DNA from: a virus
Virus record (IMG/VR): IMGVR_UViG_3300029428_000026
Coordinates: 3,834-24,500 of that record
Length of the DNA: 20,667 nt
Direction: 5' to 3' (one strand)
Positions 35 to 15,949 of the stretch are shown here, piece after piece. The position numbers and the translations under genes are program-made. The first letter of the stretch is position 1; each line of letters begins with the position of its first letter. Below the pieces are notes generated by a model that saw nothing but the letters and a program-made list of their open reading frames with translations, did not search any database and was not told the origin of the DNA.

Positions 35-85
35 GAATAGCCCTGGAATCTCGTATACCCCCTGGAATCTCGTATAGGGCTATTC
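35..85. repeat. A 9-bp inverted repeat, GAATAGCCC (35-43) / GGGCTATTC (77-85), encloses two 16-bp direct repeats CCTGGAATCTCGTATA (42-57 and 61-76).
   Basis: Read directly. The right arm overlaps the stop codon (80-82) of the minus-strand gene 80..1015. Confidence 0.8.
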
Positions 86-1015
86 ATCGGGAAGTCCATG
101 TCGCATAATCATCTCCATAAGCAAAAGCATGGAAGCGGTGGTGTCTGATTTTCCACCGAGCCATTTCCAAACAAGGATATCCGAGACGCGAAGAATCTGG
201 GATGCCTTTTTGACGGCGGATGTTTTGTTAACGAGATGATAGCGGGATTGAACCCATCCAATGAATGCTTGTGCAGAGGTGTCGAGAGTTTTTTTCAGAT
301 TGTCATTGGGCCCTTTACTGCCCATGAGACTTTCCATGCGCTCTACTGTTGAGCTTTTCAGCATACTGTTTTCCCTGATCCATCTGGCAACCGTAGCGGG
401 AGAGACTCCGAGCAAATCCGATGCTTGATTGTATATGTCTCTTGGGCGAGTCTTTTCGTATTTTTGGGCTACCCATTGCAAAAAGTTTTCCAATATGCTT
501 TTCCGTGATGGTTGATTTGTGGGGAGGCCGAGAAGAATTTCCTCTGCCCGATCAATGATTTCTTGAGAAGGAGTGGATAAGCCCTTTGCCCAGTAATAGA
601 CGGTATTAAAATTTTCTTCCAAGAGCGAAGCGCTTATTCTAGCGGCCTCCTTCATGGATTTGCACCCATGAGCGTTTTTTACCGTTTCAAAAAAGGCCAT
701 GATGGAATCATGCCTCCTGCATCTTTCCTTACTGCTTTTTTTCTTATATTCCTCATATCGTTCAGATTTTACAGGGATATACGTGGAAGTCACATATTCG
801 GCAGAGCCGGAGTAGACGTAATGGGCAGGGGGAGGATTTTTCACGATGCGAGCCATGGCCTGAACAACATTTTCGCTAATCGTGTGTTTTTTCATCCGGG
901 CCTTGATCGTATGCTCCGAAACTCCGAGGAAGTCGGCAGCTTTTATCATGGCAGCTTTTAAGGTTTTTGTCCCGTAGGTGATTTTAATCCACTCCACAAA
1001 TTCTTTCGTAGTCAT
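80..1015 (-). CDS. DNA-binding protein built from four tandem helix-turn-helix-like repeats (311 aa); putative phage regulator
   Basis: The module xFxxWVxxxY...AS.LLGVS..TV..W...ME..M recurs four times, beginning near aa 6, 108, 178 and 251. ATG start. Low GC relative to the late operon. Confidence 0.75.
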   Translation of the reverse strand: MTTKEFVEWIKITYGTKTLKAAMIKAADFLGVSEHTIKARMKKHTISENVVQAMARIVKNPPPAHYVYSGSAEYVTSTYIPVKSERYEEYKKKSSKERCRRHDSIMAFFETVKNAHGCKSMKEAARISASLLEENFNTVYYWAKGLSTPSQEIIDRAEEILLGLPTNQPSRKSILENFLQWVAQKYEKTRPRDIYNQASDLLGVSPATVARWIRENSMLKSSTVERMESLMGSKGPNDNLKKTLDTSAQAFIGWVQSRYHLVNKTSAVKKASQILRVSDILVWKWLGGKSDTTASMLLLMEMIMRHGLPDE

Positions 1016-1679: not shown

Positions 1680-2198
1680 TTATTCCTTCGGGACGGCAGG
1701 GGCGGCAAGTACCCGCCATCCGGCGCCGCTGCCATGTCCGCATTTGCGGAAGCGTTGTGCAGCACAAACCAGGAGCTTATAGACCTTTTTCCCCTTTTCT
1801 TCGCCGTACCGGTCTATCATGTAGAGTTTGAGATTCCGAGCCGTGACTTTCTCTCCATCCGGGGATTCCAGCAGCCATATCTTTGCATGGCAATTTGTCT
1901 CAAATTTCCCTGTTCTGGGGTGCTTCCTGGGGCCGGGAACTCCCCGATGCTTGCAAGCCTCCTGAAAGGCTTCTGACGTGATTTTCCGCCCCTTCTGGGC
2001 TGCATTCGCGCAAGGATAAGAGCAATGTTTCCGCCGAAAGAGTTTTTTAGCGCGGAATTCCTTTCCGCACACGGGGCAGGTGATAGTTTCCCAGGCGGCG
2101 TCATAGTGTGCCTTGAGGCAAGCGCGGGAGCAGTATACGCTTTCCCGCGCTCCGTAGCGCGGCGGAACATCCTTGCCGCATATAGGACACTTTTTCAC
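1680..2198 (-). CDS. Double zinc-ribbon protein (2x CPxCGK...CSxxC) with a NUMOD-like, homing-endonuclease-type DNA-binding C-terminus (172 aa). No nuclease motif seen.
   Basis: GTG start (reverse complement of 2196-2198). Motifs: CPICGK..YCSRAC, CPVCGK..HCSYPC, then GRKITSEAF..HPRTGKF and KIWLLESPDGEKVTARNLKLYM. Confidence 0.7.
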   Translation of the reverse strand: MKKCPICGKDVPPRYGARESVYCSRACLKAHYDAAWETITCPVCGKEFRAKKLFRRKHCSYPCANAAQKGRKITSEAFQEACKHRGVPGPRKHPRTGKFETNCHAKIWLLESPDGEKVTARNLKLYMIDRYGEEKGKKVYKLLVCAAQRFRKCGHGSGAGWRVLAAPAVPKE

Positions 2199-2303
2199 AA
2201 AATCTGTATATGTGAGAGGGTCAGATTTGTCAATGGGCCCAGAAAGGAATGAACAAACAGAGTGCTTGATTTGCTAGCTACTTGTCCTCTAGAGTAGACC
2301 TGC

Positions 2304-2819
2304 AGGAAAAAGAAGCAATCACCTACCGCCAACAAGAAAATAGGACGGCCCAGCCTCTATACGGAGGCATTAGCCGACGAGATAGCCTCCCGTTTAGCCA
2401 ACGGGGAAACGATGAAGTCCATTTGCTCGGACGATCACATGCCGGAGGTTTTAACTGTCTGGAGATGGAGGCACGAACGGGAAGAGTTTTGTAAACTCAT
2501 TCAACGCGCGCGGGAAGCGCAGTCAGAAGCCATGCTCGACGAGTGTCAGTCTTTGTCAGATGCCGCTGCCCAGGTTGCCCTCGACCCCGAATGCGGATCC
2601 GCCTCCGTCGCTGCCAAGAAGCTCGCCATTGAAACGCGGCTGAAAGTTGCCGCCCGTTTTGCCCCCGAGAAATTCGGCGACCGAGTCCGGCAGGATGTAG
2701 CGGGCGTTCCCGGCGCTCCATTGGAACGCAAAATCACCCTGGACCCCGAGCAGCTTGCCCAGCTCCGGGAAGACGAGAAAACCGCGCTGGAAACCATTGC
2801 CGGCAAACTCCACCCTTAA
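2304..2819 (+). CDS. terS: Terminase small subunit. Proposed AGG start at 2304; the first canonical start is ATG 2412.
   Basis: The frame is open from 2298. GRPSLYTEALADEIASRLANGETMKSICSDDHMPEV..W, the typical TerS HTH N-terminus, is encoded at 2343-2411, upstream of ATG 2412. There is no in-frame ATG/GTG/TTG in 2298-2411. C-terminal ...RFAPEKFGDR is typical of the family. Confidence 0.85.
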   Translation, partial: RKKKQSPTANKKIGRPSLYTEALADEIASRLANGETMKSICSDDHMPEVLTVWRWRHEREEFCKLIQRAREAQSEAMLDECQSLSDAAAQVALDPECGSASVAAKKLAIETRLKVAARFAPEKFGDRVRQDVAGVPGAPLERKITLDPEQLAQLREDEKTALETIAGKLHP

Positions 2820-2825
2820 TCGAGC

Positions 2826-4199
2826 AGGAACCATCTCCCCGTCAGCTTCTTCCTCCGTCACATTCTCGGACTCGATCCTTATCCCTGGCAAATCGAGGCC
2901 ATCAAGGCATTGCTTCTTGGAAAGGTGAGGCTGGGAGGTCGAAGCGTGGCCATGGTTGCTCCGAACGGATCGGGAAAGACGAGCCTATCCATTGCGCCCG
3001 CAATCCTGTGTTTCCTTACCTATTTTCCTCGGGGTCAGGTGCCAGTCACGTCATCATCATGGATGCAGGTAGAAAAACAGCTCTTTCCCGCGCTTCGCCG
3101 CTATATGGATAACCCTTTCTTTGACGGCTGGACATTCAACAAAACCGAAATCCGCACGCCGGAAGGAGGATTTGCCGTGGGATTCTCAACCGACAACGCG
3201 GGACGCGCAGAAGGGTGGCATCCGAAAATCTCGCCCGACGTGGATCCCGTCTTTTACGTCCTGGACGAAGCCAAGACCATTCCCGACTCCATCTTCACCG
3301 CTGTTTCCCGCTGCACGCTCTTCAACGCGTTCATCACCTCGTCGCCGGGTGCCGATTCCGGAACCTTTTACGACTGCTTCCACAAAAATTCATCCCTCTA
3401 CTACAAAATCCGCGTTAAATACGAGGATTGCCCGCACATCGAAATCAACGATCCAGGCAAGGCCGAACGCCTGAAAAAAGAATACGGCGAACAGTCCTCC
3501 TTCTACCGCTCGGCCATCCTCGGCGAATTCACGGACCTTGACGGGCAATCCGTCATTTCCCGCCGCGCCATCATGGAGCTGCTCAACAACCCGCCTCCCT
3601 TTTTGGACACCGGGGAGACCTGCGGCGGCTTTGACTTCGCCGCCGGGGGTGATGAGAATGTCTTCGCGGCCGGACAGGGCAACCGTTTTTTCATCGCCGA
3701 CCACTGGGCCGACCCAGACACTGTAGGAGCGCGCGGACGTTTCCGCCGAAAGGCCGCCGAACTCGGCATCTCTGCCGACCGCATCTTTGCCGACGGCGAC
3801 GGACTGGGGCTTCCCATCATTGACGACTTCCGGGCTGAGGGTTTCCCCGTGCACTCCTACCGGGGAGGCTTCCCGGCAGATGACACACAAGCCTTTGTCA
3901 ACCTCCGCGCCCAAGCATGGAGGGCACTAGCCCGAGCCATCGAAGAAAAAGAGCTCATTCTCGACATCGACGAGGATACCGTTGAGCAACTGGTCGCCCC
4001 CCGCCTCCAGACGGACGCGATTGGGCGCGTCAAAATCGAGAGCAAGGAGGACATGGCAAAGCGGGGCGTCCGCTCTCCAGACCGTGCTGACGCGCTCGTC
4101 ATGGCCTGGCACGCGCGCCGGCACAGCGGACTTGTCCGGGAGCTTGGGACTTGGTATGCCAGACATCCGGCACAAAAACGCGCCATTGGCAGATATTAG
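2826..4199 (+). CDS. terL: Terminase large subunit. Proposed AGG start at 2826; the ORF track starts at TTG 2910.
   Basis: Walker A is VAPNGSGKTS. The conserved N-terminal LGLDPYPWQIEAIKAL is encoded at 2865-2909, upstream of TTG 2910. There is no in-frame ATG/GTG/TTG between the TerS stop (2817-2819) and 2910, and none in any frame across roughly 2806-2880. Confidence 0.9.
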   Translation, partial: RNHLPVSFFLRHILGLDPYPWQIEAIKALLLGKVRLGGRSVAMVAPNGSGKTSLSIAPAILCFLTYFPRGQVPVTSSSWMQVEKQLFPALRRYMDNPFFDGWTFNKTEIRTPEGGFAVGFSTDNAGRAEGWHPKISPDVDPVFYVLDEAKTIPDSIFTAVSRCTLFNAFITSSPGADSGTFYDCFHKNSSLYYKIRVKYEDCPHIEINDPGKAERLKKEYGEQSSFYRSAILGEFTDLDGQSVISRRAIMELLNNPPPFLDTGETCGGFDFAAGGDENVFAAGQGNRFFIADHWADPDTVGARGRFRRKAAELGISADRIFADGDGLGLPIIDDFRAEGFPVHSYRGGFPADDTQAFVNLRAQAWRALARAIEEKELILDIDEDTVEQLVAPRLQTDAIGRVKIESKEDMAKRGVRSPDRADALVMAWHARRHSGLVRELGTWYARHPAQKRAIGRY

Positions 4200-4201
4200 G
4201 G

Positions 4202-4242
4202 TTGACAATATATCAACATATCTATATGTGTTGATTTATATT
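4202..4242 (+). promoter_or_regulatory. Promoter-like AT-rich block with an operator-like inverted repeat, immediately upstream of the tRNA
   Basis: One candidate is TTGACA (4202-4207) + 17 nt + TATGTG (4225-4230). An alternative is TCAACA (4213-4218) + 18 nt + TATATT (4237-4242). Inverted repeat ATCAACATAT (4212-4221) / ATGTGTTGAT (4226-4235) matches 9/10. Confidence 0.45.
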
Positions 4243-4246
4243 CAAT

Positions 4247-4320
4247 CGCAGGGTAGTGAAACGGTATCATATGAGGTTCCTGTCCTCATGTCGGAGGTCC
4301 AACTCCTCCCCCTGCAACCA
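4247..4320 (+). tRNA. tRNA with anticodon CCT (decodes AGG), an initiator-type acceptor stem (C1xA72) and an encoded CCA
   Basis: Hand-folded cloverleaf. Acceptor CGCAGGG/CCCTGCA; U8 A9; D stem GTGA/TCAT; D loop AACGGTA. Anticodon stem TGAGG/CCTCA; loop TT-CCT-GT; variable loop TGTC. T stem GGAGG/CCTCC; T loop TCCAACT; discriminator A; CCA. Atypical points are C at position 55 and the 1:72 mismatch. Confidence 0.8.
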
Positions 4321-4343: not shown

Positions 4344-5708
4344 AGGTTTAACGCCGTCCGAAATATCCTCAACGCCCCGAAGCTGGTCGCCCAACAGGAG
4401 ACCAGAATCAAGGAGCTGGAAACAGACCTCGCCCGGCAAGCCTTGACGGACCGGAGCCGCACTCCTGGCCGCCCTCAATGGTTTGAATACTGGGACCCTC
4501 TTCAGGGCGCCGGCTTGCAAACACTTATCGATGCACGCAACGAAGCCAGACGCGGCGCCTTTGCGCGGCAAATGCTCATCTGGGACGAGGTTATCTACTC
4601 GGACGGACTTCTGGGCATGCTCTACTCCCGGTTGATTGAAAGCGTTTCCATGCAGGGCTGGAAGATTGACGCCGCGGACGACAGCCCGGAAGCCCAGCAG
4701 CAGAAAAACGCCCTGGAAGAATTCTACAACTCCGTCAACGGACTTCAGCAGTCCTTCGGGCATCTGGCCTCCGCTCTGTTCTACGGCTACGCCCACCTCC
4801 AATATATTGAGGACGCCTGGGGCCGGAGGTTTGAATTCATTCCCCAGCGTTACTGGGTGCGGCCCGGGGAACTTAATGAGTGGCAATTTAACCCCCACTG
4901 TTATATCGGCGTCGATACCGGGGAAAGTGTGGAAGACGAAACTCTCGTCGTGATGGAGCACCGTTACCCCATCCTGTTCCCTGCTTCCCGCGCATCCTTT
5001 GAGCGCAACCACGCCAAGATGATCTGGGACAACCACATGGACCGTTACGGCTCCGCCCCGGCTATTATCACAGCCCCCAAGGAGGCAAGCGCCGCTGTTA
5101 TGGACGCACTTGAGCGCGCCTGCGAAGAGCTCAAGTCTGGCGCATCCGTCGTCCTGCCTCCCGGCTGTACAGCAGAACCTCTCAAGGCATCCTCCATCAA
5201 CGAAAACTACTTCCTATCCCGCATCAACATGGCCGACAAGGATCAGGTGCGGTTTGTGATGGCAGGAACCTTGACTGTTCTGAATGAATCGGGCTCCGGC
5301 ACGCTGGCCGGGTCTGCCCATACGGACAGCTGGAACTCGGTGGTCTCCGCCGTGTGCTCCAAGGTAGCGGAAGCTTTTAACGCCTCCATCAGCCCGCTGG
5401 TGCTGAGAGACGGCGAACCGCTGGCCCGCCTCCAAATCACCTTTGACACCGTTCAGACGCCGCTGCAGAAGGCCGAGGAAATTGCCACTCTTGCGGATGG
5501 AGGCGTCCGTCCCGAGAAAACCGAAATCGAAGAAAAGATCGGCATGTCCATCGAAGACGCGAAGGCAGCCGATCCCGCAGCGGCTGCCGTCAACCGGGAA
5601 CCGGAAGGCACATACATCCCCGCCGACGCTTACGAGCAGCTGCAGCAGCTCATTTATACCGGGCTCATGAAAGGATTTAGCGATGATCAGTACCAAACAA
5701 ATCAATGA
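4344..5708 (+). CDS. Portal protein, Mu gp29/DUF935-like. Proposed AGG start at 4344; the canonical alternative is TTG 4443.
   Basis: Resembles the Mu gp29 N-terminal region (..LQTLIDARNEARRGAF..DEVIYSDGLLG..). The frame is open upstream and encodes the plausible coiled coil MFNAVRNILNAPKLVAQQETRIKELETDLARQA. Confidence 0.85.
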   Translation, partial: RFNAVRNILNAPKLVAQQETRIKELETDLARQALTDRSRTPGRPQWFEYWDPLQGAGLQTLIDARNEARRGAFARQMLIWDEVIYSDGLLGMLYSRLIESVSMQGWKIDAADDSPEAQQQKNALEEFYNSVNGLQQSFGHLASALFYGYAHLQYIEDAWGRRFEFIPQRYWVRPGELNEWQFNPHCYIGVDTGESVEDETLVVMEHRYPILFPASRASFERNHAKMIWDNHMDRYGSAPAIITAPKEASAAVMDALERACEELKSGASVVLPPGCTAEPLKASSINENYFLSRINMADKDQVRFVMAGTLTVLNESGSGTLAGSAHTDSWNSVVSAVCSKVAEAFNASISPLVLRDGEPLARLQITFDTVQTPLQKAEEIATLADGGVRPEKTEIEEKIGMSIEDAKAADPAAAAVNREPEGTYIPADAYEQLQQLIYTGLMKGFSDDQYQTNQ

Positions 5709-7290: not shown

Positions 7291-8214
7291 AGGGCTACTC
7301 CATTTTGCTCAGCCGTCCAGTTCACCGATGTCCTGACCGCCTACTCAGCCGGCTCCGGGAACACCGAAGAGAACTCCATTATCAGCCGCATCGCGCCGAT
7401 CGTCCCGGTTTACGACCTCAATTTCCAGTACAAGGTCTGGGACACGGAATCTGCCTTTACGGTCCAGCCGATCCAGGTGGGACCGGGCGAACCTCCCCGC
7501 CAGACCGTCCTGCGCGGCAGGAACGAAACCGACACCCTTCAGGGGTACGGCTTAACCTTGCCGATTCCGGACGCCTTGCTGGGCGTCAACCGCGAAAAGG
7601 CGCAGGCTATCACCCTGGCGGAATACAAGCTCATCGAATCACAGTTTGTGACCTCGTATGAATATGAACGCGCCAAGCTCATCACCAGCCAGTTGCCTGC
7701 CGCAGCCGGTTACGGGGACTGGGCCAACGAACAGAAGAATCCGCTGACGGATCTGGATAATGCCATCCTGTCCATCAATGCGGCGACTGGACACATGCCT
7801 AACACCATCGTCTTTGGCATCAACGCCTGGCAGCTCCTGCGAGCCAACCCCATTGCCAGACAGGTGGTGTCATTCAACAGTGTCGGCCTCTTCAACGAAG
7901 ACCTGCTCCGCAATGCGCTGATTCGGCCTATCAGGGATATTTACATCGCAGCCATGCCCTACCGCGACGCTTCCGGCGACGCCAAGACCATCATGGAGAA
8001 CGAAGTCTATGTCCTGTACAAGGAAGACTCCCCGACGCAGTTCGACGCCTCTGCCATCAAGACGTTTGGTTTGTCCGGCAAGCTCCGCCGCGAAGTCATC
8101 ACGGAATACAAGCCGACGCCCGCTTTGACGCTGGTAACCAACCGCGTCTACTCGCTGACCAAGCTGACCAACCCGTCCGCCATCGTCCGCATCGACGCGA
8201 CGGCCACGGCTTAA
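7291..8214 (+). CDS. Major capsid protein. Proposed AGG start at 7291; the ORF track starts at GTG 7477.
   Basis: A 307-aa product at the capsid position. The frame is open from 7276 and encodes protein-like MATPFCSAVQFTDVLTAYSAGSGNTEENSIISRIAPIVPVYDLNFQYKVWD.. upstream of GTG 7477. There is no in-frame ATG/GTG/TTG in that stretch. Confidence 0.85.
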   Translation, partial: RATPFCSAVQFTDVLTAYSAGSGNTEENSIISRIAPIVPVYDLNFQYKVWDTESAFTVQPIQVGPGEPPRQTVLRGRNETDTLQGYGLTLPIPDALLGVNREKAQAITLAEYKLIESQFVTSYEYERAKLITSQLPAAAGYGDWANEQKNPLTDLDNAILSINAATGHMPNTIVFGINAWQLLRANPIARQVVSFNSVGLFNEDLLRNALIRPIRDIYIAAMPYRDASGDAKTIMENEVYVLYKEDSPTQFDASAIKTFGLSGKLRREVITEYKPTPALTLVTNRVYSLTKLTNPSAIVRIDATATA

Positions 8215-8712: not shown

Positions 8713-9845
8713 TGACCGCCGCCCAGATGGAGATGATCGCCAACGACTACGCCGAACGCGCCTTTTTCGTGTCCGGCGTGGAGCCCGGCGTTATCCTGTC
8801 CGACTTTGAGGAAAAGGCGGGGAAGGTCGCCTCCGGCGCCCTGAGCTATGAAGAGGCGCAGCAGTCCATCCGCGAAACCCTGCGCCAGCAGGGCTACCGA
8901 CCGCCGGCAACGGGGCAGGGCGGCATTCAGGATTTGTCATCCTGGCTCCGCATCCAGGTCGTCATGGAAACCAATGCGGCCATGGCGCACGGCTACCGGA
9001 ACTGGTACAACTGGACACAGGACGACAGTACGGCCGCCTTCAAATTTTACCGCTCCCAGGGCCGGGAAGATCCCCGCTACTGGGCCGAACGCTGGAACCG
9101 GGCCAGAGCCGGATTGGAAGAAGAAGCCACGGAGGCAGTTTCTTCTGGTTTCATCCGCGGCGAAACCGTCGGCTACGCCCTGGCGGCCTCCGACATCTGG
9201 ATTCGCCTCTCGCGCTTCGGAACGCCTTATCCTCCCTTCGATTACCTTTCCGGCATGAACATTGCCCCCGTGGGAGCCGAAGAAGCCCGCGCGGCCGGAC
9301 TGGAGGTTTCCCGCGTCCGTCTCGCTCCCGCCAGCTTCAACGCCACTCTGGAAAGCAATACTATAAGTATCACGAACGCCAATAAAAAGAAGATCCGCCG
9401 CATCCTGAAAGACGCCGTGCGTGTTAAAACCGAGAACGACCGCAATACCACCTTTACCTACACCGACCCGAACGGGACGCGCCCTTACACGGACGCGGAA
9501 CTGGCGGAAGTCCTGTCCGGGGATTTCCCAGAAGAGATCCCCTTGCGCCAGGCCCAGGCGTTCCGTCTGGCGGCAGCCGGGGGAGCCGTGGCCGGAACGC
9601 TGGCATCACTTTACCTCGACCGCCTGCTGGACCGTCTGGCTTCCGAGCCGGAAGGTGATTGGTACGCCCGGCCCGCAGACGTGGCCGCCGCGTCCTCCCG
9701 CCAGTATATCCCCGTTTCCCCAAAGGAAGAGGGGGAATTCACCTATCCCATTACCTCCGGGCACGTCAGGAAAGTGGAAGACGTCGCCGGAGCCCTCAAT
9801 GTGGAACTGTCAACCCCTTACGTTTTACCCGTCAAATGGCTGTAA
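8709..9845 (+). CDS. Mu gpF / SPP1 gp7-like head morphogenesis protein
   Basis: Motifs match the family: YAERAFFVSG..(L)SDF.., ..METNAAMAHGY.., ..PYPPFDY... ATGATG start overlaps the upstream stop. Confidence 0.65.
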   Translation: MMTAAQMEMIANDYAERAFFVSGVEPGVILSDFEEKAGKVASGALSYEEAQQSIRETLRQQGYRPPATGQGGIQDLSSWLRIQVVMETNAAMAHGYRNWYNWTQDDSTAAFKFYRSQGREDPRYWAERWNRARAGLEEEATEAVSSGFIRGETVGYALAASDIWIRLSRFGTPYPPFDYLSGMNIAPVGAEEARAAGLEVSRVRLAPASFNATLESNTISITNANKKKIRRILKDAVRVKTENDRNTTFTYTDPNGTRPYTDAELAEVLSGDFPEEIPLRQAQAFRLAAAGGAVAGTLASLYLDRLLDRLASEPEGDWYARPADVAAASSRQYIPVSPKEEGEFTYPITSGHVRKVEDVAGALNVELSTPYVLPVKWL

Positions 9846-10501
9846 CCGTCCACATCGACCAATCCGCGATTAACCGCGCGTTTGCCGACATGGCGCCGTC
9901 CGCCGCCCTGCACAAGACCGCCATCCGCAAGGCGGGCGTTGCCCTCAGTCTGATGATTCAGCAAACCTTGCGCCAGCAGGGCAAGGACTACTACGACGCC
10001 GCGGCGGACGCCACCAGCATGGAAGAAACCGCCGAAGGCGTCAGCGTCTCCATTGCCTGGCGCGGCATCGGCCTGCACTGGATAGGCACGCAGGGCTACC
10101 TGGGCGGCCCGCTGCGGCCCACCGGACGCACTTCGGAAGTCACCGGCAAGCCGATTCAGAACCTCGCCATCCCCACCATCAACGCGCCACGAGGGCATGG
10201 AGGGACCCGAAGCATTTACAGCGCAGGCTTCCGCAAAGAGGACTTGCAATTCATCCCCTCCAAAAATGGAGGACGGAATGGAAATGTAACCGGTGTCCTG
10301 ATTCTCAAGACAGCCCAGTCCTCCACCGGGAAGAAAGCGGCCCGCAAGCTTTTCAGCAAAGGAACGAAAACAGGAGACGTCCTCTATATCCTGTGCCGGG
10401 AAGTAACGATTGCTCCTACTCCTGGCATCCTGCCGACGATGGACCAAATGGCGCAGCGCGCCGCGGAAACATACCTCACCCAAATCGGAAACGAATCATG
10501 A
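9836..10501 (+). CDS. Virion morphogenesis/tail-completion-type protein (Mu gpG-like, tentative)
   Basis: ATG at 9836 overlaps the upstream stop (9843-9845). The ORF-track start at 9659 gives an Arg-rich, non-protein-like extension, so I rejected it. Confidence 0.55.
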   Translation: MAVTVHIDQSAINRAFADMAPSAALHKTAIRKAGVALSLMIQQTLRQQGKDYYDAAADATSMEETAEGVSVSIAWRGIGLHWIGTQGYLGGPLRPTGRTSEVTGKPIQNLAIPTINAPRGHGGTRSIYSAGFRKEDLQFIPSKNGGRNGNVTGVLILKTAQSSTGKKAARKLFSKGTKTGDVLYILCREVTIAPTPGILPTMDQMAQRAAETYLTQIGNES

Positions 10502-11028
10502 TCCCCTCCATTGACCAGACCATGAGCTGCCGCATCATTGAGCGGCTCAAAAGCAGCAAGGAATTGAGCTGCCACATCTTTGACGCGCCCTTTGATCCGG
10601 AGTATGCCGCCAATGACATCATCATGTCTGCAATGGGGAATAACGGCGTGGTGCTGGTGTGTCCCGGGGATGCGGATGAATACCAGGACGGACACGGGCA
10701 GACGGCGGAACCTACCATGTGGAGGCAGTATTTCATTATTGTAGCCATCTATCACAACGCTGCCCTGTTCCCGGAGGAATGCCTGACGCCGGCCTACTAT
10801 TTGCGCGCCGTGGGCGACGTGATTGAGCATGCCCTGTGGAACTGGAATCCACTTCCGTTTCCCGCGCCCGCCATGATGAAGCCCAAGATCAAGGGGCGCT
10901 TTGCCTCTTCCGGGATTATCGACGGAGAGAAGAGGCAAATGAACGTCTTGACCGTGGACTACCGCGTCCCGATCAATATCAACATACGAACCAAAACGGA
11001 ATTCCATGAGCAGAACGCCAAAAAATAA
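10498..11028 (+). CDS. Neck/tail-terminator-type protein (Mu gp37-like, tentative)
   Basis: ATGA overlap with the upstream stop at 10499-10501. The product is 176 aa. Confidence 0.55.
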   Translation: MIPSIDQTMSCRIIERLKSSKELSCHIFDAPFDPEYAANDIIMSAMGNNGVVLVCPGDADEYQDGHGQTAEPTMWRQYFIIVAIYHNAALFPEECLTPAYYLRAVGDVIEHALWNWNPLPFPAPAMMKPKIKGRFASSGIIDGEKRQMNVLTVDYRVPININIRTKTEFHEQNAKK

Positions 11029-11409: not shown

Positions 11410-12057
11410 AGGCCTAATACTTACGACCCTACTTACAGCAATCGCAATGTGACTCCGCAGATTACGGGCGTCCTGGCGATTTTTCTCCCTGACGGCATCA
11501 AGGTGACCGAGGAAGGCGGCGCCTCCTACGTTACCGGACCTTATCAGTTCCCGGAGCCTCCTACTGCGCCTCCCGTCGATCCGACGGCAGGCCCCGCATT
11601 CCCCTGGGTGAGCTTTGGCTTGCTGGGTGCGTTCCAATCCGTAGCTACGCAGGTGGAAGGAGAAGTCACCCGCTTCTATGGCGGTCCTCTTGGTTACCGC
11701 GTCCAGCGCAAGAATACCACCACTGGGAAGCGCATGACTTTCACGACGCCGGACATGTCCCCGGAATACTTCCAGCTCTCTTTTGCGCTGGGCGGGGCCC
11801 CGGCAAACGGAAAGGAAGCCGTTGCTATCGGGCATGGCGGCGACAACAAAATCGAAGGTTACCTGCAGCTGTGGTATCAGAACGATATTGGCGAGATATT
11901 TCTTACCTACATCGGGCATGGCGCCTTGCGTCTCTTGCAGGACCCGGAACACACAACCGCGGTGGCGTCCGCGCAGTTTGAATTTGAGATGGATTACAAG
12001 GGTCAGTACCAGGCCACGCCGTCCAATATTCAGGATGTGACGACGCCCGCTTCCTGA
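11410..12057 (+). CDS. Putative major tail (tube) protein. Proposed AGG start at 11410; the canonical alternative is GTG 11449.
   Basis: A ~215-aa beta-rich protein at the tube position, followed by a strong terminator. In-frame AGG lies 5 codons after the upstream stop, in the context ATTCAAGCATCAGG. Confidence 0.6.
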
Positions 12058-12110: not shown

Positions 12111-14231
12111 AGGCAACAGGCAGGCAAATATGATATACGGACCGTCACGGGACTCAACCAGTCACTGGTCGTGCGCGTGGTGGATTTCCAGGGAGATCCC
12201 GTCGATATGGGCGGCGTCACCCTGCGCGGAGCCGTTCGCCTCAAGACGGGTATTGCCGAGTTCGGCTTTTCCCGTGACGACGAGGGCAACGGCGTGATTT
12301 CGTGGGCCTCGGTACCCGCGGGCATGTGGTCCTACGATGTCTTCATGGATGACGGCAACGAGGAAAGCCCGCTTCTCTATGGATGCTTTGTTTCCTCAGG
12401 CCGGGTGACGCCGGACTTGCCGGACGAGCAGCAGGCGGTAGCGGGCGCGGTCGTCGTGCAGCTGCCGGAAGGAAGCGGATGCGTGCAGGTGGTGCTTGAT
12501 AATGCGTCAAGCGCCGCCTGGTACGCGGAGCAGGCCAAGAAGTACGCCGAGAATTTCAATCTTTCGGTGGACCGGGTCACTACCGGCGAGCCTGGCACTC
12601 CTGCCGCAGCGGAAGCCGTGAAAGGCTCGGAAGCGGGCTCTTATCTGTTGTCGTTTACCATCCCCAAAGGAGACGCCGGTCCCGAAGGCCCACCAGGCCC
12701 GCAGGGGGAACCGGGCGAAACCGGCCCCGAAGGCCCTCAGGGTCCCAGGGGCGACGCAGGACCTCAAGGTCCTCAGGGAGCGACCGGAGAACAGGGACCA
12801 AGAGGCGACATTGGAGAAACCGGACCGCAGGGTCCTGCCGGCCCGCAAGGCCCCGAGGGGCCGGAGGGTCCCCAAGGACCCCGTGGCGAGAAAGGAGATA
12901 CCGGGGATGTTAATCCGGACGGGTCTTATAACTGGACGCAGCCGCAGACCTACGACGCCACGATCACCGCAATCGAAGGAGTCCGTGTGCCGCTGCCCGC
13001 CACAGGGCAGAATGCCATTTCCTATGAGGGAATGATAACCATGACGGCTGCCGGCCAATGGAGCCGCACCAACTATTTTCTGGAATCCGTCATTCCGTCA
13101 TGGGTGACCGCCTTGGTGGAAGCCCAGTCGTTGAACACAAGCTACGCAATTGCTACCGCTAACGCCTCCCTGAAGAAGGGAGTATTTAATAACGACTTGT
13201 GCGATATGGTATTAACCATGACGGCGGCCGGGGGTGTTTCTGTTATCGGCAAATCCACGGGATCATGGAAATTTGCCAATTACATGGGCAACAATAGAAA
13301 TAACGAATATGCTGCCGCTTGCGCCTGGCGGATACTTGGCTCCGACAAGGTGTCGGTTCTCTTGGGCAGCACTGCCCAGGGGTACGCTACGACTGCCGAT
13401 CCGCTGGCGTCCTGCTATTCACATCCTGTGCACTGGGTGGATTATGCCTGGGATAATGCAAATTACAGGTATCCGCAAAACAATACAGTCAATGGAGCGA
13501 GAGGGGGCGACAATGTGCCGGCGTATCAGATCACTACCTACCCTATGGGGTATCTGGGGAGCAATAAGTCGGCCTTGATAAGGGGGACGTTTTACGGACC
13601 CCTCAAGGTAGATTCCCATTATGTTTGGGCATTGGCTCCGGCTTTTACCTACGTCTCCGCGGCCATGACGCCACCCAACCCCGATGACCAGGAGATTTAC
13701 AATCGCTGGGCTTTGTTTGTGGACAAGCAATATGTAATGGATATGGCTTCCTCCTTTTGGGGCGCCGGCAACACAGCATGCCTTACAACCAAATTCAAGG
13801 CGCACGAAGTCAGCGGGACTTATCAGGCGGGCCTCCGGATGGGAGGAATGAGGATAGACAATGCACCCTCACTGGGCATAACCAACTCCTGGGTCCTCAT
13901 GAAGGACACGGTAATGGAGGGCGTGACACCTAAACCAGTTCCAGAAGTAACGGCTTCTGCTCAGGAAGTTCCGGCCTCTGGCGGCGAGGTGACATTGACG
14001 GCGTCTTCCACCCTCTCCGAGGCTATCTATGTGCTGAACGATACCATGTGCGGACATGACCCCGCCGCTGTGTGGTGCACGCAATCCTCTGAAGAAATAG
14101 GGTCCGGCGGCGGCCAGGTTGTCCTGACGCTGGCGGCAAACACGACTGGACAACCGCGGCAGGTGTGGGCGTTTGTCGGCCACCATTACGCCGAGGCCGC
14201 CGTTGTAGAAATCAACCAATTAGCGCAATAA
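12111..14231 (+). CDS. Collagen-repeat tail fibre with a BACON/Ig-like C-terminal domain. Proposed AGG start at 12111; the canonical alternative is GTG 12171.
   Basis: Contains 27 uninterrupted G-X-Y triplets. A fibre-type motif, [10 protein letters not shown], precedes them. The C-terminus (13947-14228) fits the BACON-like pattern ..[35 protein letters not shown]. Confidence 0.85.
12669..12911 (+). repeat. Collagen-like G-X-Y triplet repeat (27 triplets) inside the fibre gene
   Basis: [81 protein letters not shown]. Confidence 0.95.
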
Positions 14232-15352: not shown

Positions 15353-15418
15353 TCAACTGTAAAGTTTTTCTTACAAGTTCATACATATTAATAACCAATC
15401 AATTAAAGGAGAATATCC

Positions 15419-15949
15419 AGGAAAATAGCCATTGATATAGGCCATGCCAACAACACCGGAGCCCGTGGAAACAGGCTTGAAGAACACGCCGTAGCAGCGA
15501 CGATTGCGGAACGCCTCGCGCCTATGCTCAGAAAGCTGGGCGCCCAGGTGGACGTAATTGACTTTCCGGCCCAGAGCAACACGGACGACCTGAACGCCAC
15601 CATCAAGGCCGCCAACGAAGGCGGCTACGACTTCGGGATTTCCCTGCATTGTGACTCATCGGATAATGTGCAAGCTCACGGCGCCCATGTGTGCTTCTAT
15701 CCCGGGAGCGTTAAGGGAAGCCGGCTTGCCATGTGCATCGCGGAACCTCTTGCCCGGCTGCTCCCAGGACGGGACTGCACGGTGTTGGCCCGTCCGGGGC
15801 TGGCCGTCCTGAAAAGGACGCGCTGCCCGTGGGTGCTGTGCGAATGCGGCTTTATCACCAATCCTGAAAATGCCGCCCTTATGAAGGACCATCCCGAAGC
15901 CATTGCGGAAGCCATTGCGGAAGGAGTGAAGGCCTATTCCAAGCTGTAG
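15419..15949 (+). CDS. N-acetylmuramoyl-L-alanine amidase (Amidase_3) endolysin. Proposed AGG start at 15419; the ORF track starts at ATG 15524.
   Basis: KIAIDIGHANNTGARGNRLEEH.., which includes the first zinc ligands, is encoded at 15422-15523, upstream of ATG 15524. There is no in-frame ATG/GTG/TTG after the stop at 15404-15406. AAGGAG (15406-15411) sits 7 nt before AGG 15419. Confidence 0.88.
   Translation, partial: RKIAIDIGHANNTGARGNRLEEHAVAATIAERLAPMLRKLGAQVDVIDFPAQSNTDDLNATIKAANEGGYDFGISLHCDSSDNVQAHGAHVCFYPGSVKGSRLAMCIAEPLARLLPGRDCTVLARPGLAVLKRTRCPWVLCECGFITNPENAALMKDHPEAIAEAIAEGVKAYSKL

Follow-up and report, generated by a model that had tools for sequence, protein, structure and literature searches.

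How can the terminase genes of a phage be translated when neither reading frame offers a usable start codon? This question is raised by 20,667 nucleotides of viral DNA (IMG/VR record IMGVR_UViG_3300029428_000026, positions 3,834 to 24,500), here called the window, which form the late-gene region of an Akkermansia phage and share 81.6% identity with the unannotated Akkermansia phage DTMo-2021a (CP084202.1). An initial annotation, made from the letters of the window, had noticed that the genes for the small (TerS) and large (TerL) terminase subunits both lack a canonical start, that each carries an in-frame AGG two codons after the preceding stop codon, and that a transfer RNA (tRNA) encoded just downstream might take part in their initiation. 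Our analysis leads to the conclusion that the phage very probably encodes a dedicated initiator tRNA with the anticodon CCU, hereafter tRNA(CCU), and that seven late genes of the window initiate at AGG.

Start codons of the late genes

The terminase reading frames proved to be as first described. The TerS frame opens after TAG 2295-2297, carries AGG at 2304 and offers its first ATG, GTG or TTG at ATG 2412 (codon 38 of the open frame), while the codons at 2343-2408 specify the N-terminal motif GRPSLYTEALADEIASRLANGE. In TerL, the frame begins after TAA 2817-2819, carries AGG at 2826 and has its first canonical start, TTG 2910, at codon 30, the motif LGLDPYPWQ being encoded at 2865-2891. When the homologues were aligned, a check suggested with the initial annotation, the conserved regions of both proteins were found to begin well upstream of 2412 and 2910. 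Positions 1-105 of the 106 of PF20901 (Sf6_terminase) align to TerS residues 19-130 counted from AGG, where ATG 2412 is residue 37. This match, which includes the N-terminal helix-turn-helix (HTH), is complete only if TerS translation begins before ATG 2412. Likewise, TerS residue 7 aligns to position 3 of the phrog_1482 profile, and the PHROG terminase profiles reach TerL residues 12-17. Distant homologues of TerS have MGRPS, MSRPS or MTGRPT as their N-terminus, far ahead of where ATG 2412 falls, and those of TerL all start at or upstream of residue 4, TTG 2910 being residue 29. The canonical starts at 2412 and 2910 are thus not usable, because they would cut into conserved domains. Furthermore, a two-codon indel between the TerS AGG and the internal ATG is in frame among the relatives, indicating that this stretch is coding.

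To audit the gene starts, all long open frames in the window were considered, and coding frames were confirmed via substitution periodicity across relatives. The two terminase genes had been singled out correctly, but the number was too low: five further genes have an early AGG and no early canonical start in their open frames. Altogether, seven genes on the + strand are without a usable canonical start:

2304..2819, + strand: small terminase subunit TerS (Sf6-type), from AGG 2304; PF20901, E=5e-29
2826..4199, + strand: large terminase subunit TerL, from AGG 2826; phrog_2, E=8.6e-25
4344..5708, + strand: portal protein (Mu-type), from AGG 4344, 24 nt after the tRNA; PF06074, E=2.4e-32
7291..8214, + strand: major head protein, from AGG 7291; phrog_1005, residue 13 aligned to profile position 14
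11410..12057, + strand: unnamed gene just upstream of the fibre gene, from AGG 11410; + frame coding by periodicity
12111..14231, + strand: tail fibre with collagen-like repeats, from AGG 12111, first canonical start GTG 12171; tail-fibre PHROGs
15406..15949, + strand: endolysin (N-acetylmuramoyl-L-alanine amidase), Shine-Dalgarno (SD) sequence AAGGAG at 15406-15411, 7-nt spacer, AGG 15419

Family profile matches reach to within a few residues of each AGG. In the portal protein, residue 32 aligns to position 31 of phrog_113, and the first canonical start, TTG 4443, is residue 34. In the major head protein, whose frame was confirmed by substitution periodicity, the first canonical start is GTG 7477, residue 63. 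Position 1 of the Amidase_3 profile aligns to residue 3 of the amidase, and a start at ATG 15524 would remove 35 residues of the domain. The gene at 11410, for which profile searches of Pfam and PHROG returned no family, probably encodes a tail component; one-nucleotide indels occur between its upstream TAA and AGG, and its first canonical start, GTG 11449, decays to GTC, GTA or GTT in the relatives while AGG is invariant. The collagen triple-helix repeats of the fibre lie at residues 186-239 (Pfam Collagen).

Of all codons, AGG alone occurs in each of the seven start intervals, the runner-up being present in five. Given that the number of codons expected by chance to be shared by all seven is 0.013, the presence of AGG in each of them is not a chance effect. 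No in-frame stop interrupts any of the AGG-start genes, which all belong to the packaging, virion or lysis class. About 15 other late genes of the window have normal ATG starts, and in the complete phage DTMo-2021a every early gene starts with ATG. A 384-codon open frame at 9874-11028 with several AGGs was considered as a further member and ruled out by substitution periodicity, which resolved it into two ATG genes starting at 9836 and 10498. Near the right end of DTMo-2021a (L077:28905-31073), a 730-codon open reading frame (ORF), giving 723 residues from 28905, contains AGG as its seventh codon and no canonical start before TTG at codon 16; a family match was searched for and none was found. 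This ORF is possibly another AGG-start gene.

For comparison, 41 close relatives were retrieved by means of TerL. AGG is kept at the start of TerS in 37/37, of TerL in 40/41, of the portal gene in 38/38, of the head gene in 37/37 and of the fibre gene in 31/31, and the ATG-start genes of the window remain ATG genes. Upstream of each AGG the relatives diverge or are unalignable, whereas downstream they show coding-type conservation with third-position variation. Mean column identity rises at AGG from 0.44-0.77 upstream to 0.72-0.88 downstream; the values upstream, at the start codon and downstream are 0.44/1.00/0.72 for TerS, 0.52/1.00/0.86 for the portal gene and 0.57/1.00/0.88 for the fibre gene. 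The invariance of AGG, together with the coding-type conservation from AGG onward, supports the initial proposal that AGG is the start of both terminase genes. Judged by this comparison, the AGG codons occupy start-codon slots.

The same slot can hold ATG in homologues. The start of the amidase gene reads AAAGGAGAATATCC-AGG-AAAATAGCC in the window and AAAGGAGAATACTC-ATG-AAAATAGCC in DTMo-2021a. At the 51 amidase loci compared, AGG fills the slot 19 times and ATG 32 times, behind the same SD sequence AAAGGAG and 7-nt spacer, and amidase homologues at 55-68% identity have ATG in all cases. This polymorphism implies that one T/G change can move a gene into or out of the AGG set. In the exceptional TerL (L031), the gene starts ATG-AGA-CTC-CCG-GTC (MRLPVSFFLRH), one to two codons from the AGG slot.

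The tRNA at 4247-4320 and its surroundings

The tRNA gene had also been placed correctly by the initial annotation; its anticodon is CCT in the DNA:

4247..4320, + strand: initiator-type tRNA, anticodon CCU, which reads AGG (ARAGORN; Rfam tRNA model, 51.2 bits)

Arranged by structural segments, its sequence is CGCAGGG-UA-GUGA-AACGGUA-UCAU-A-UGAGG-UUCCUGU-CCUCA-UGUC-GGAGG-UCCAACU-CCUCC-CCCUGCA-A-CCA. The acceptor end combines a C1·A72 mismatch with G2:C71, C3:G70, A73 and a templated CCA, an arrangement that we take to fit the bacterial initiator pattern exemplified by E. coli tRNAfMet, and the Rfam tRNA model flags the 1:72 pair as non-standard. In most family variants the anticodon stem is CGGGG/CCCCG, with three consecutive G:C pairs at 29-31:39-41; the stem of the window copy is UGAGG/CCUCA, with A29:U41 followed by G30:C40 and G31:C39.

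tRNA(CCU) lies in the same place in 38/38 of the relatives whose contig extends past TerL, and is absent from the distant TerL relatives. Across 16 distinct variants from the relatives, pairing is 100% in each of the four helices, compensatory double changes affect eight pairs, a level reached by 0/500 shuffles, 1:72 is C·A in 16/16 and the anticodon CCU is invariant. These changes indicate that the tRNA is under selection for a cloverleaf with a mismatched 1:72 position and a CCU anticodon. When all fetched loci were surveyed, C·A was found at 1:72 in 23/23 distinct CCU tRNAs. Among the 128 distinct tRNAs of these loci, a 1:72 mismatch occurred only in tRNA(CAU) (16/27), in tRNA(CCU) (23/23) and in one Gln tRNA, and the Arg tRNAs with ACG or UCU anticodons are paired at this position. 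A73-CCA is encoded in the tRNA(CCU) of all lineages; a templated CCA is known to be frequent among initiator tRNA genes (PMC5143459). These initiator hallmarks support the early hint that the tRNA participates in starting the terminase genes.

The tRNA is not tRNA(fMet), because its anticodon is CCU in every member, and it is not an ordinary tRNA-Arg, because its 1:72 pair is mismatched. In E. coli, an elongator tRNA-Arg has a paired 1:72 as EF-Tu substrate and A20 and C35 as identity elements. The D loop AACGGUA of tRNA(CCU) gives U20, and of the Arg identity elements only C35 and U36 fit. In sequence terms, C35 and U36 favour arginyl-tRNA synthetase (ArgRS), yet A20 is absent, as is the CAU needed by methionyl-tRNA synthetase (MetRS). 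The initial annotation had written both terminase products with an N-terminal M, but the amino acid carried may be Arg or Met. As judged from its variants, tRNA(CCU) is conserved, structurally constrained, initiator-type in architecture and complementary to AGG.

A scan that disregarded the anticodon recovered the same D-arm and 3'-end scaffold in many unrelated phage contigs with CAU and with C·A, A·A or G·A at 1:72. These CAU scaffolds, which have the same D arm as tRNA(CCU), are phage-encoded initiator-type tRNA-Met. In unrelated phages, many tRNA arrays (L128-L135, L146, L150, L175 and others) include a tRNA(CAU) that shares the short D arm and A73-CCA and is mismatched at 1:72, frequently as A·A or G·A instead of C·A. 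As for variation among the CCU tRNAs, a few single variants alter G19 in the D loop (4260-4266), anticodon-loop position 37 is G, A or U across the lineages, as compared to the usual A for codons that start with A, and the tRNA(CCU) of one gut contig (L192) has C33.

Between TerL and the tRNA lies a further conserved element:

4202..4246, + strand: conserved spacer separating the TerL stop from the tRNA; TTGACA 4202-4207 and its flanks are invariant across the family

The spacer is a possible tRNA promoter or processing leader. A promoter-like match at 4213-4242 was rejected as a firm promoter, because its -10 hexamer is not conserved and only TTGACA 4202-4207 is invariant. Just after TTGACA, an inverted repeat, ATCAACA(9 nt)TGTTGAT, spans 4213-4235; it may serve as an operator or as a processing site, or form a terminator-like hairpin.

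In three contigs (L254:6406-9167, and also L255 and L256), TerS, TerL and tRNA(CCU) are followed by an integrase instead of the portal gene. Past the integrase comes another TerS-like gene, 64% identical, which starts with ATG ('MGRPSLYS') and also has an AGG placed 13 codons ahead of the G in GRPS. It is followed by a pRha gene, by another full-length but diverged copy of tRNA(CCU) (90.5% identical, G2·U71), and by primase-like and ERCC4 genes. The insert looks like a satellite or second phage at the initiator tRNA, with its own tRNA copy. In the window, divergent genes lie upstream of TerS. The gene at 80-1015 (- strand) encodes a multi-HTH protein with weak HTH_17, HTH_23 and HTH_3 matches, and among its relatives is a 535-residue version with faint matches to sigma-70 region 4; the gene at 1680-2198 (- strand) encodes a Cys-rich, zinc-finger-like protein of 172 residues. 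Both are candidate late-gene regulators.

Other phage lineages and alternative readings

At least three unrelated phage lineages repeat the combination of tRNA(CCU) and AGG starts, represented by the contigs L192, L257/L263 and L261. L192, a contig of 41% GC from the metagenome-assembled genome of an uncultured gut 'Azospirillum sp.', carries between TerS and TerL a tRNA(CCU) that differs from the one in the window but likewise has C1·A72 and A73-CCA. Its portal-type gene begins AAGGAG-8nt-AGG and its head gene AAGGAG-7nt-AGG. Eight viral contigs with head proteins 79-83% identical to that of L192 lack tRNA(CCU) and carry ATG in exactly those slots: ATG-TCA-GCA-AAT (MSANAETLERQ) stands against AGG-TCT-ACT-AAC in L192, and ATG-TTT-GAA-TTT against AGG-TTT-GAA-TTT.

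A relaxed scan revealed four more initiator-type tRNA(CCU) genes, in L257, L262 and L263 (about 32-33% GC) and in L261 (58% GC), with A·A, G·A or C·A at 1:72. The portal, head and major tail genes of L257 each read AGGAGG-8/9nt-AGG, and their PHROG matches run end to end when counted from AGG; in the head protein, residues 5-297 match positions 2-294 of the 297 of phrog_422 (E=7e-102). The portal ORF of L263 opens at its own AGG, and the 743-codon portal ORF of L261 begins GAGG-6nt-AGG and has no canonical start for 131 codons. In each lineage the AGG-start genes fall into the same functional class, packaging and virion. Outside the pattern-fixed columns, the tRNA(CCU) of the Akkermansia phages and that of L192 are 60% identical, which is no better than the match to some CAU scaffolds and speaks neither for nor against a single origin of the two. 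By comparison of the contigs, tRNA(CCU) and AGG starts co-occur in several unrelated phage lineages.

Several points weigh against initiation at AGG by tRNA(CCU). The evidence is computational throughout, consisting of sequence and its comparison. All tRNA(CCU) variants have U11:A24, as opposed to the A11:U24 of the D stem that characterizes initiators of the E. coli type. In the window copy, A29:U41 leaves two of the three initiator G:C pairs; natural initiators with fewer than three such pairs exist in some bacteria. The T loop UCCAACU (4298-4304) of most Akkermansia-phage variants has an unusual C55 instead of the near-universal U55. Efficient charging has to be assumed, as the tRNA has neither the CAU that MetRS recognizes nor, with U20 instead of A20, the complete set of E. 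coli ArgRS identity elements. For TerS in particular, ATA 2340 of the window corresponds to an ATG in a TerS-like paralogue, and the NCBI pipeline picked the equivalent ATA in an Akkermansia genome (L252). ATA 2340 is a weak residual alternative as the start of the window TerS only.

These two TerS observations also favour the alternative that survives best, namely that the host initiator tRNA(CAU) starts at near-cognate codons (ATA 2340 for TerS, ATT 2862 for TerL, or the mismatched AGG itself) and that tRNA(CCU) is an elongator supplying a rare Arg codon. ATA and ATT do sit just before the conserved motifs, and codon supply is the usual explanation of phage tRNAs (PMC10264068). However, the near-cognate positions are not conserved: ATA 2340 is CCG and ATT 2862 is ATC or GTC in most relatives, and GTG 11449 fares no better, whereas AGG is invariant. 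AUA, AUU and AUC starts give 0.1-1% of the efficiency of AUG (PMC11744186), and AGG is rejected by initiation factor 3 (IF3) when no matching tRNA is present (PMC6868393), which makes this route implausible for a major head protein. As an elongator, tRNA(CCU) would differ from every other one surveyed in its constant C1·A72, and it would serve a codon that is minor within the phage genes (5.2 per 1000). Moreover, the tRNA-less relatives of L192 carry ATG instead of AGG. We consider near-cognate initiation unlikely.

A second alternative does away with start codons of the genes' own: ribosomes would arrive from the upstream gene, through coupling or re-initiation, or else by another non-standard route, the AGGs being incidental. 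The TerL AGG lies two codons after the TerS stop, and several of the genes are tightly packed. However, TerS, the portal gene (which follows the tRNA), the amidase gene and the L192 and L257 genes have their own SD sequence or a preceding non-coding gap. Re-initiation requires a start codon too, and coupling would leave both the invariance of AGG and the AGG/ATG swaps unexplained. Its probability appears very small.

Smaller still is the chance that the tRNA-like gene is mainly an integration target or the remnant of an attachment (att) site rather than a working tRNA. The integrase-bearing element right beside the tRNA in L254-L256, with its second tRNA copy, fits such a role, but both copies are full length, and the cloverleaf has compensatory changes, 100% pairing and an invariant anticodon. 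An att role is also compatible with function, given that tRNA genes commonly do both. Finally, although loss of the start codon is a common first step in gene decay, we regard decaying pseudogenes of a defective prophage, and likewise sequencing or assembly errors, as practically refuted by the comparison, since the same AGGs recur in >80 independent contigs, including the isolated phage genome CP084202.1, and since the ORFs are intact, as the initial annotation had stressed, and under strong purifying selection in the relatives, with third-position variation 3- to 19-fold above that of the other positions.

Mechanism and meaning

To our knowledge, translation in all cells and viruses is held to start from an initiator tRNA of the CAU anticodon, non-AUG starts being read by the same tRNA via mismatch. 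How a CCU initiator might work can be proposed from established bacterial initiation. The C1·A72 mismatch would keep tRNA(CCU) off EF-Tu and make it a formylation substrate, and the G:C-rich anticodon stem would steer it to the ribosomal P site. On AGG it would pass IF3 owing to the full complementarity of codon and anticodon, as in engineered initiator anticodon mutants, and the host initiator tRNA(CAU) would be unable to use AGG efficiently. Translation of the packaging, capsid, tail and lysis genes would then depend on the phage tRNA, that is, on two inputs, mRNA and tRNA. The purpose is probably a translational lock or a sharpened switch on the late genes. Against a lock it must be said that many late genes keep ATG and that the tRNA lies inside the same cluster as the genes to be gated.

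tRNA(CCU) resembles the bacterial initiator tRNA(fMet) in C1·A72, G2:C71, C3:G70, A73, the templated CCA and the G:C-rich anticodon stem (three G:C pairs in most variants), but differs from it in being phage-encoded, in having CCU instead of CAU and hence no MetRS anticodon identity, in U11:A24 instead of A11:U24, and in G, A or U instead of A at position 37. Stop-codon recoding in crAss-like and Lak gut phages, reportedly described by Borges et al. in 2022 and Peters et al. in 2022, is said to involve phage suppressor tRNAs and to be concentrated in late structural and lysis genes. There, as here, a phage tRNA changes the meaning of a codon and the recoded codons are concentrated in late genes, which suggests a translational timer or lock; the difference is that recoding concerns stop codons and elongation, whereas here a sense codon, AGG, and initiation are affected.

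The closest precedents are engineered. In initiator anticodon mutants, such as the amber tRNA-CUA or the initiator tRNA-CCU with AGG starts in E. coli, an altered anticodon likewise makes the complementary codon a start. Of 12 such pairs, CCU/AGG performed best in all the strains tested, giving an induction of 35- to 402-fold, and it exceeded AUG in Nissle 1917 (bioRxiv 10.64898/2026.04.16.719103). Unlike these laboratory constructs, the phage pair is natural, evolutionarily conserved, present in several lineages and tied to one gene class. In the biocontainment of phiX174 by TAG starts and an amber initiator tRNA (bioRxiv 10.1101/2024.07.29.605542), capsid genes are similarly untranslatable without a special initiator tRNA, but there the host strain supplies the tRNA in order to contain the phage, whereas here the phage carries its own. 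Ordinary phage tRNAs, which serve codon compensation or evasion of anticodon nucleases (PMC10264068), share with tRNA(CCU) the location of a phage tRNA gene inside a gene cluster, but not the initiator architecture, nor a cognate codon that is enriched where genes start as opposed to inside them. In the literature searched (full text), no natural private pair of initiator tRNA and AGG start was described, only engineered systems, and a natural private start codon with its own initiator tRNA is apparently new.

A practical consequence concerns annotation. Public gene calls miss the AGG starts, as seen in 135-residue TerS truncations in databases (proteins P0004 and P0006). In the NCBI Akkermansia genome GCA_046885165.1 (L252:5977-11879), TerS is called at ATA and TerL at a downstream TTG, while the portal protein is 57 and the major head protein 87 codons short. 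In these phages, gene callers systematically cut short the major head, portal and terminase proteins or misplace their starts, which corrupts phage annotation and protein databases. tRNA(CCU) and AGG would offer synthetic biology, and the biocontainment of phages, an orthogonal initiation pair that is ready-made and evolution-tested. The system would also allow direct tests of which amino acid a natural protein can begin with, and of how IF3, IF2 and formyltransferase tolerate it.

For the phages themselves, it seems likely that diverse gut and other phages have naturally expanded their start repertoire by means of a private initiator tRNA(CCU) and by exchanging ATG for AGG in genes for packaging, capsid and tail, and sometimes for lysis. 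The phage tRNA would then gate the production of virions at the level of translation, and the first residue of these proteins may be other than Met, for example formyl-arginine. If true, the existence in nature of an initiator tRNA dedicated to an unrelated sense codon would constitute a new category of genetic-code variation, and would add a new layer of phage gene regulation that mirrors stop-codon recoding.

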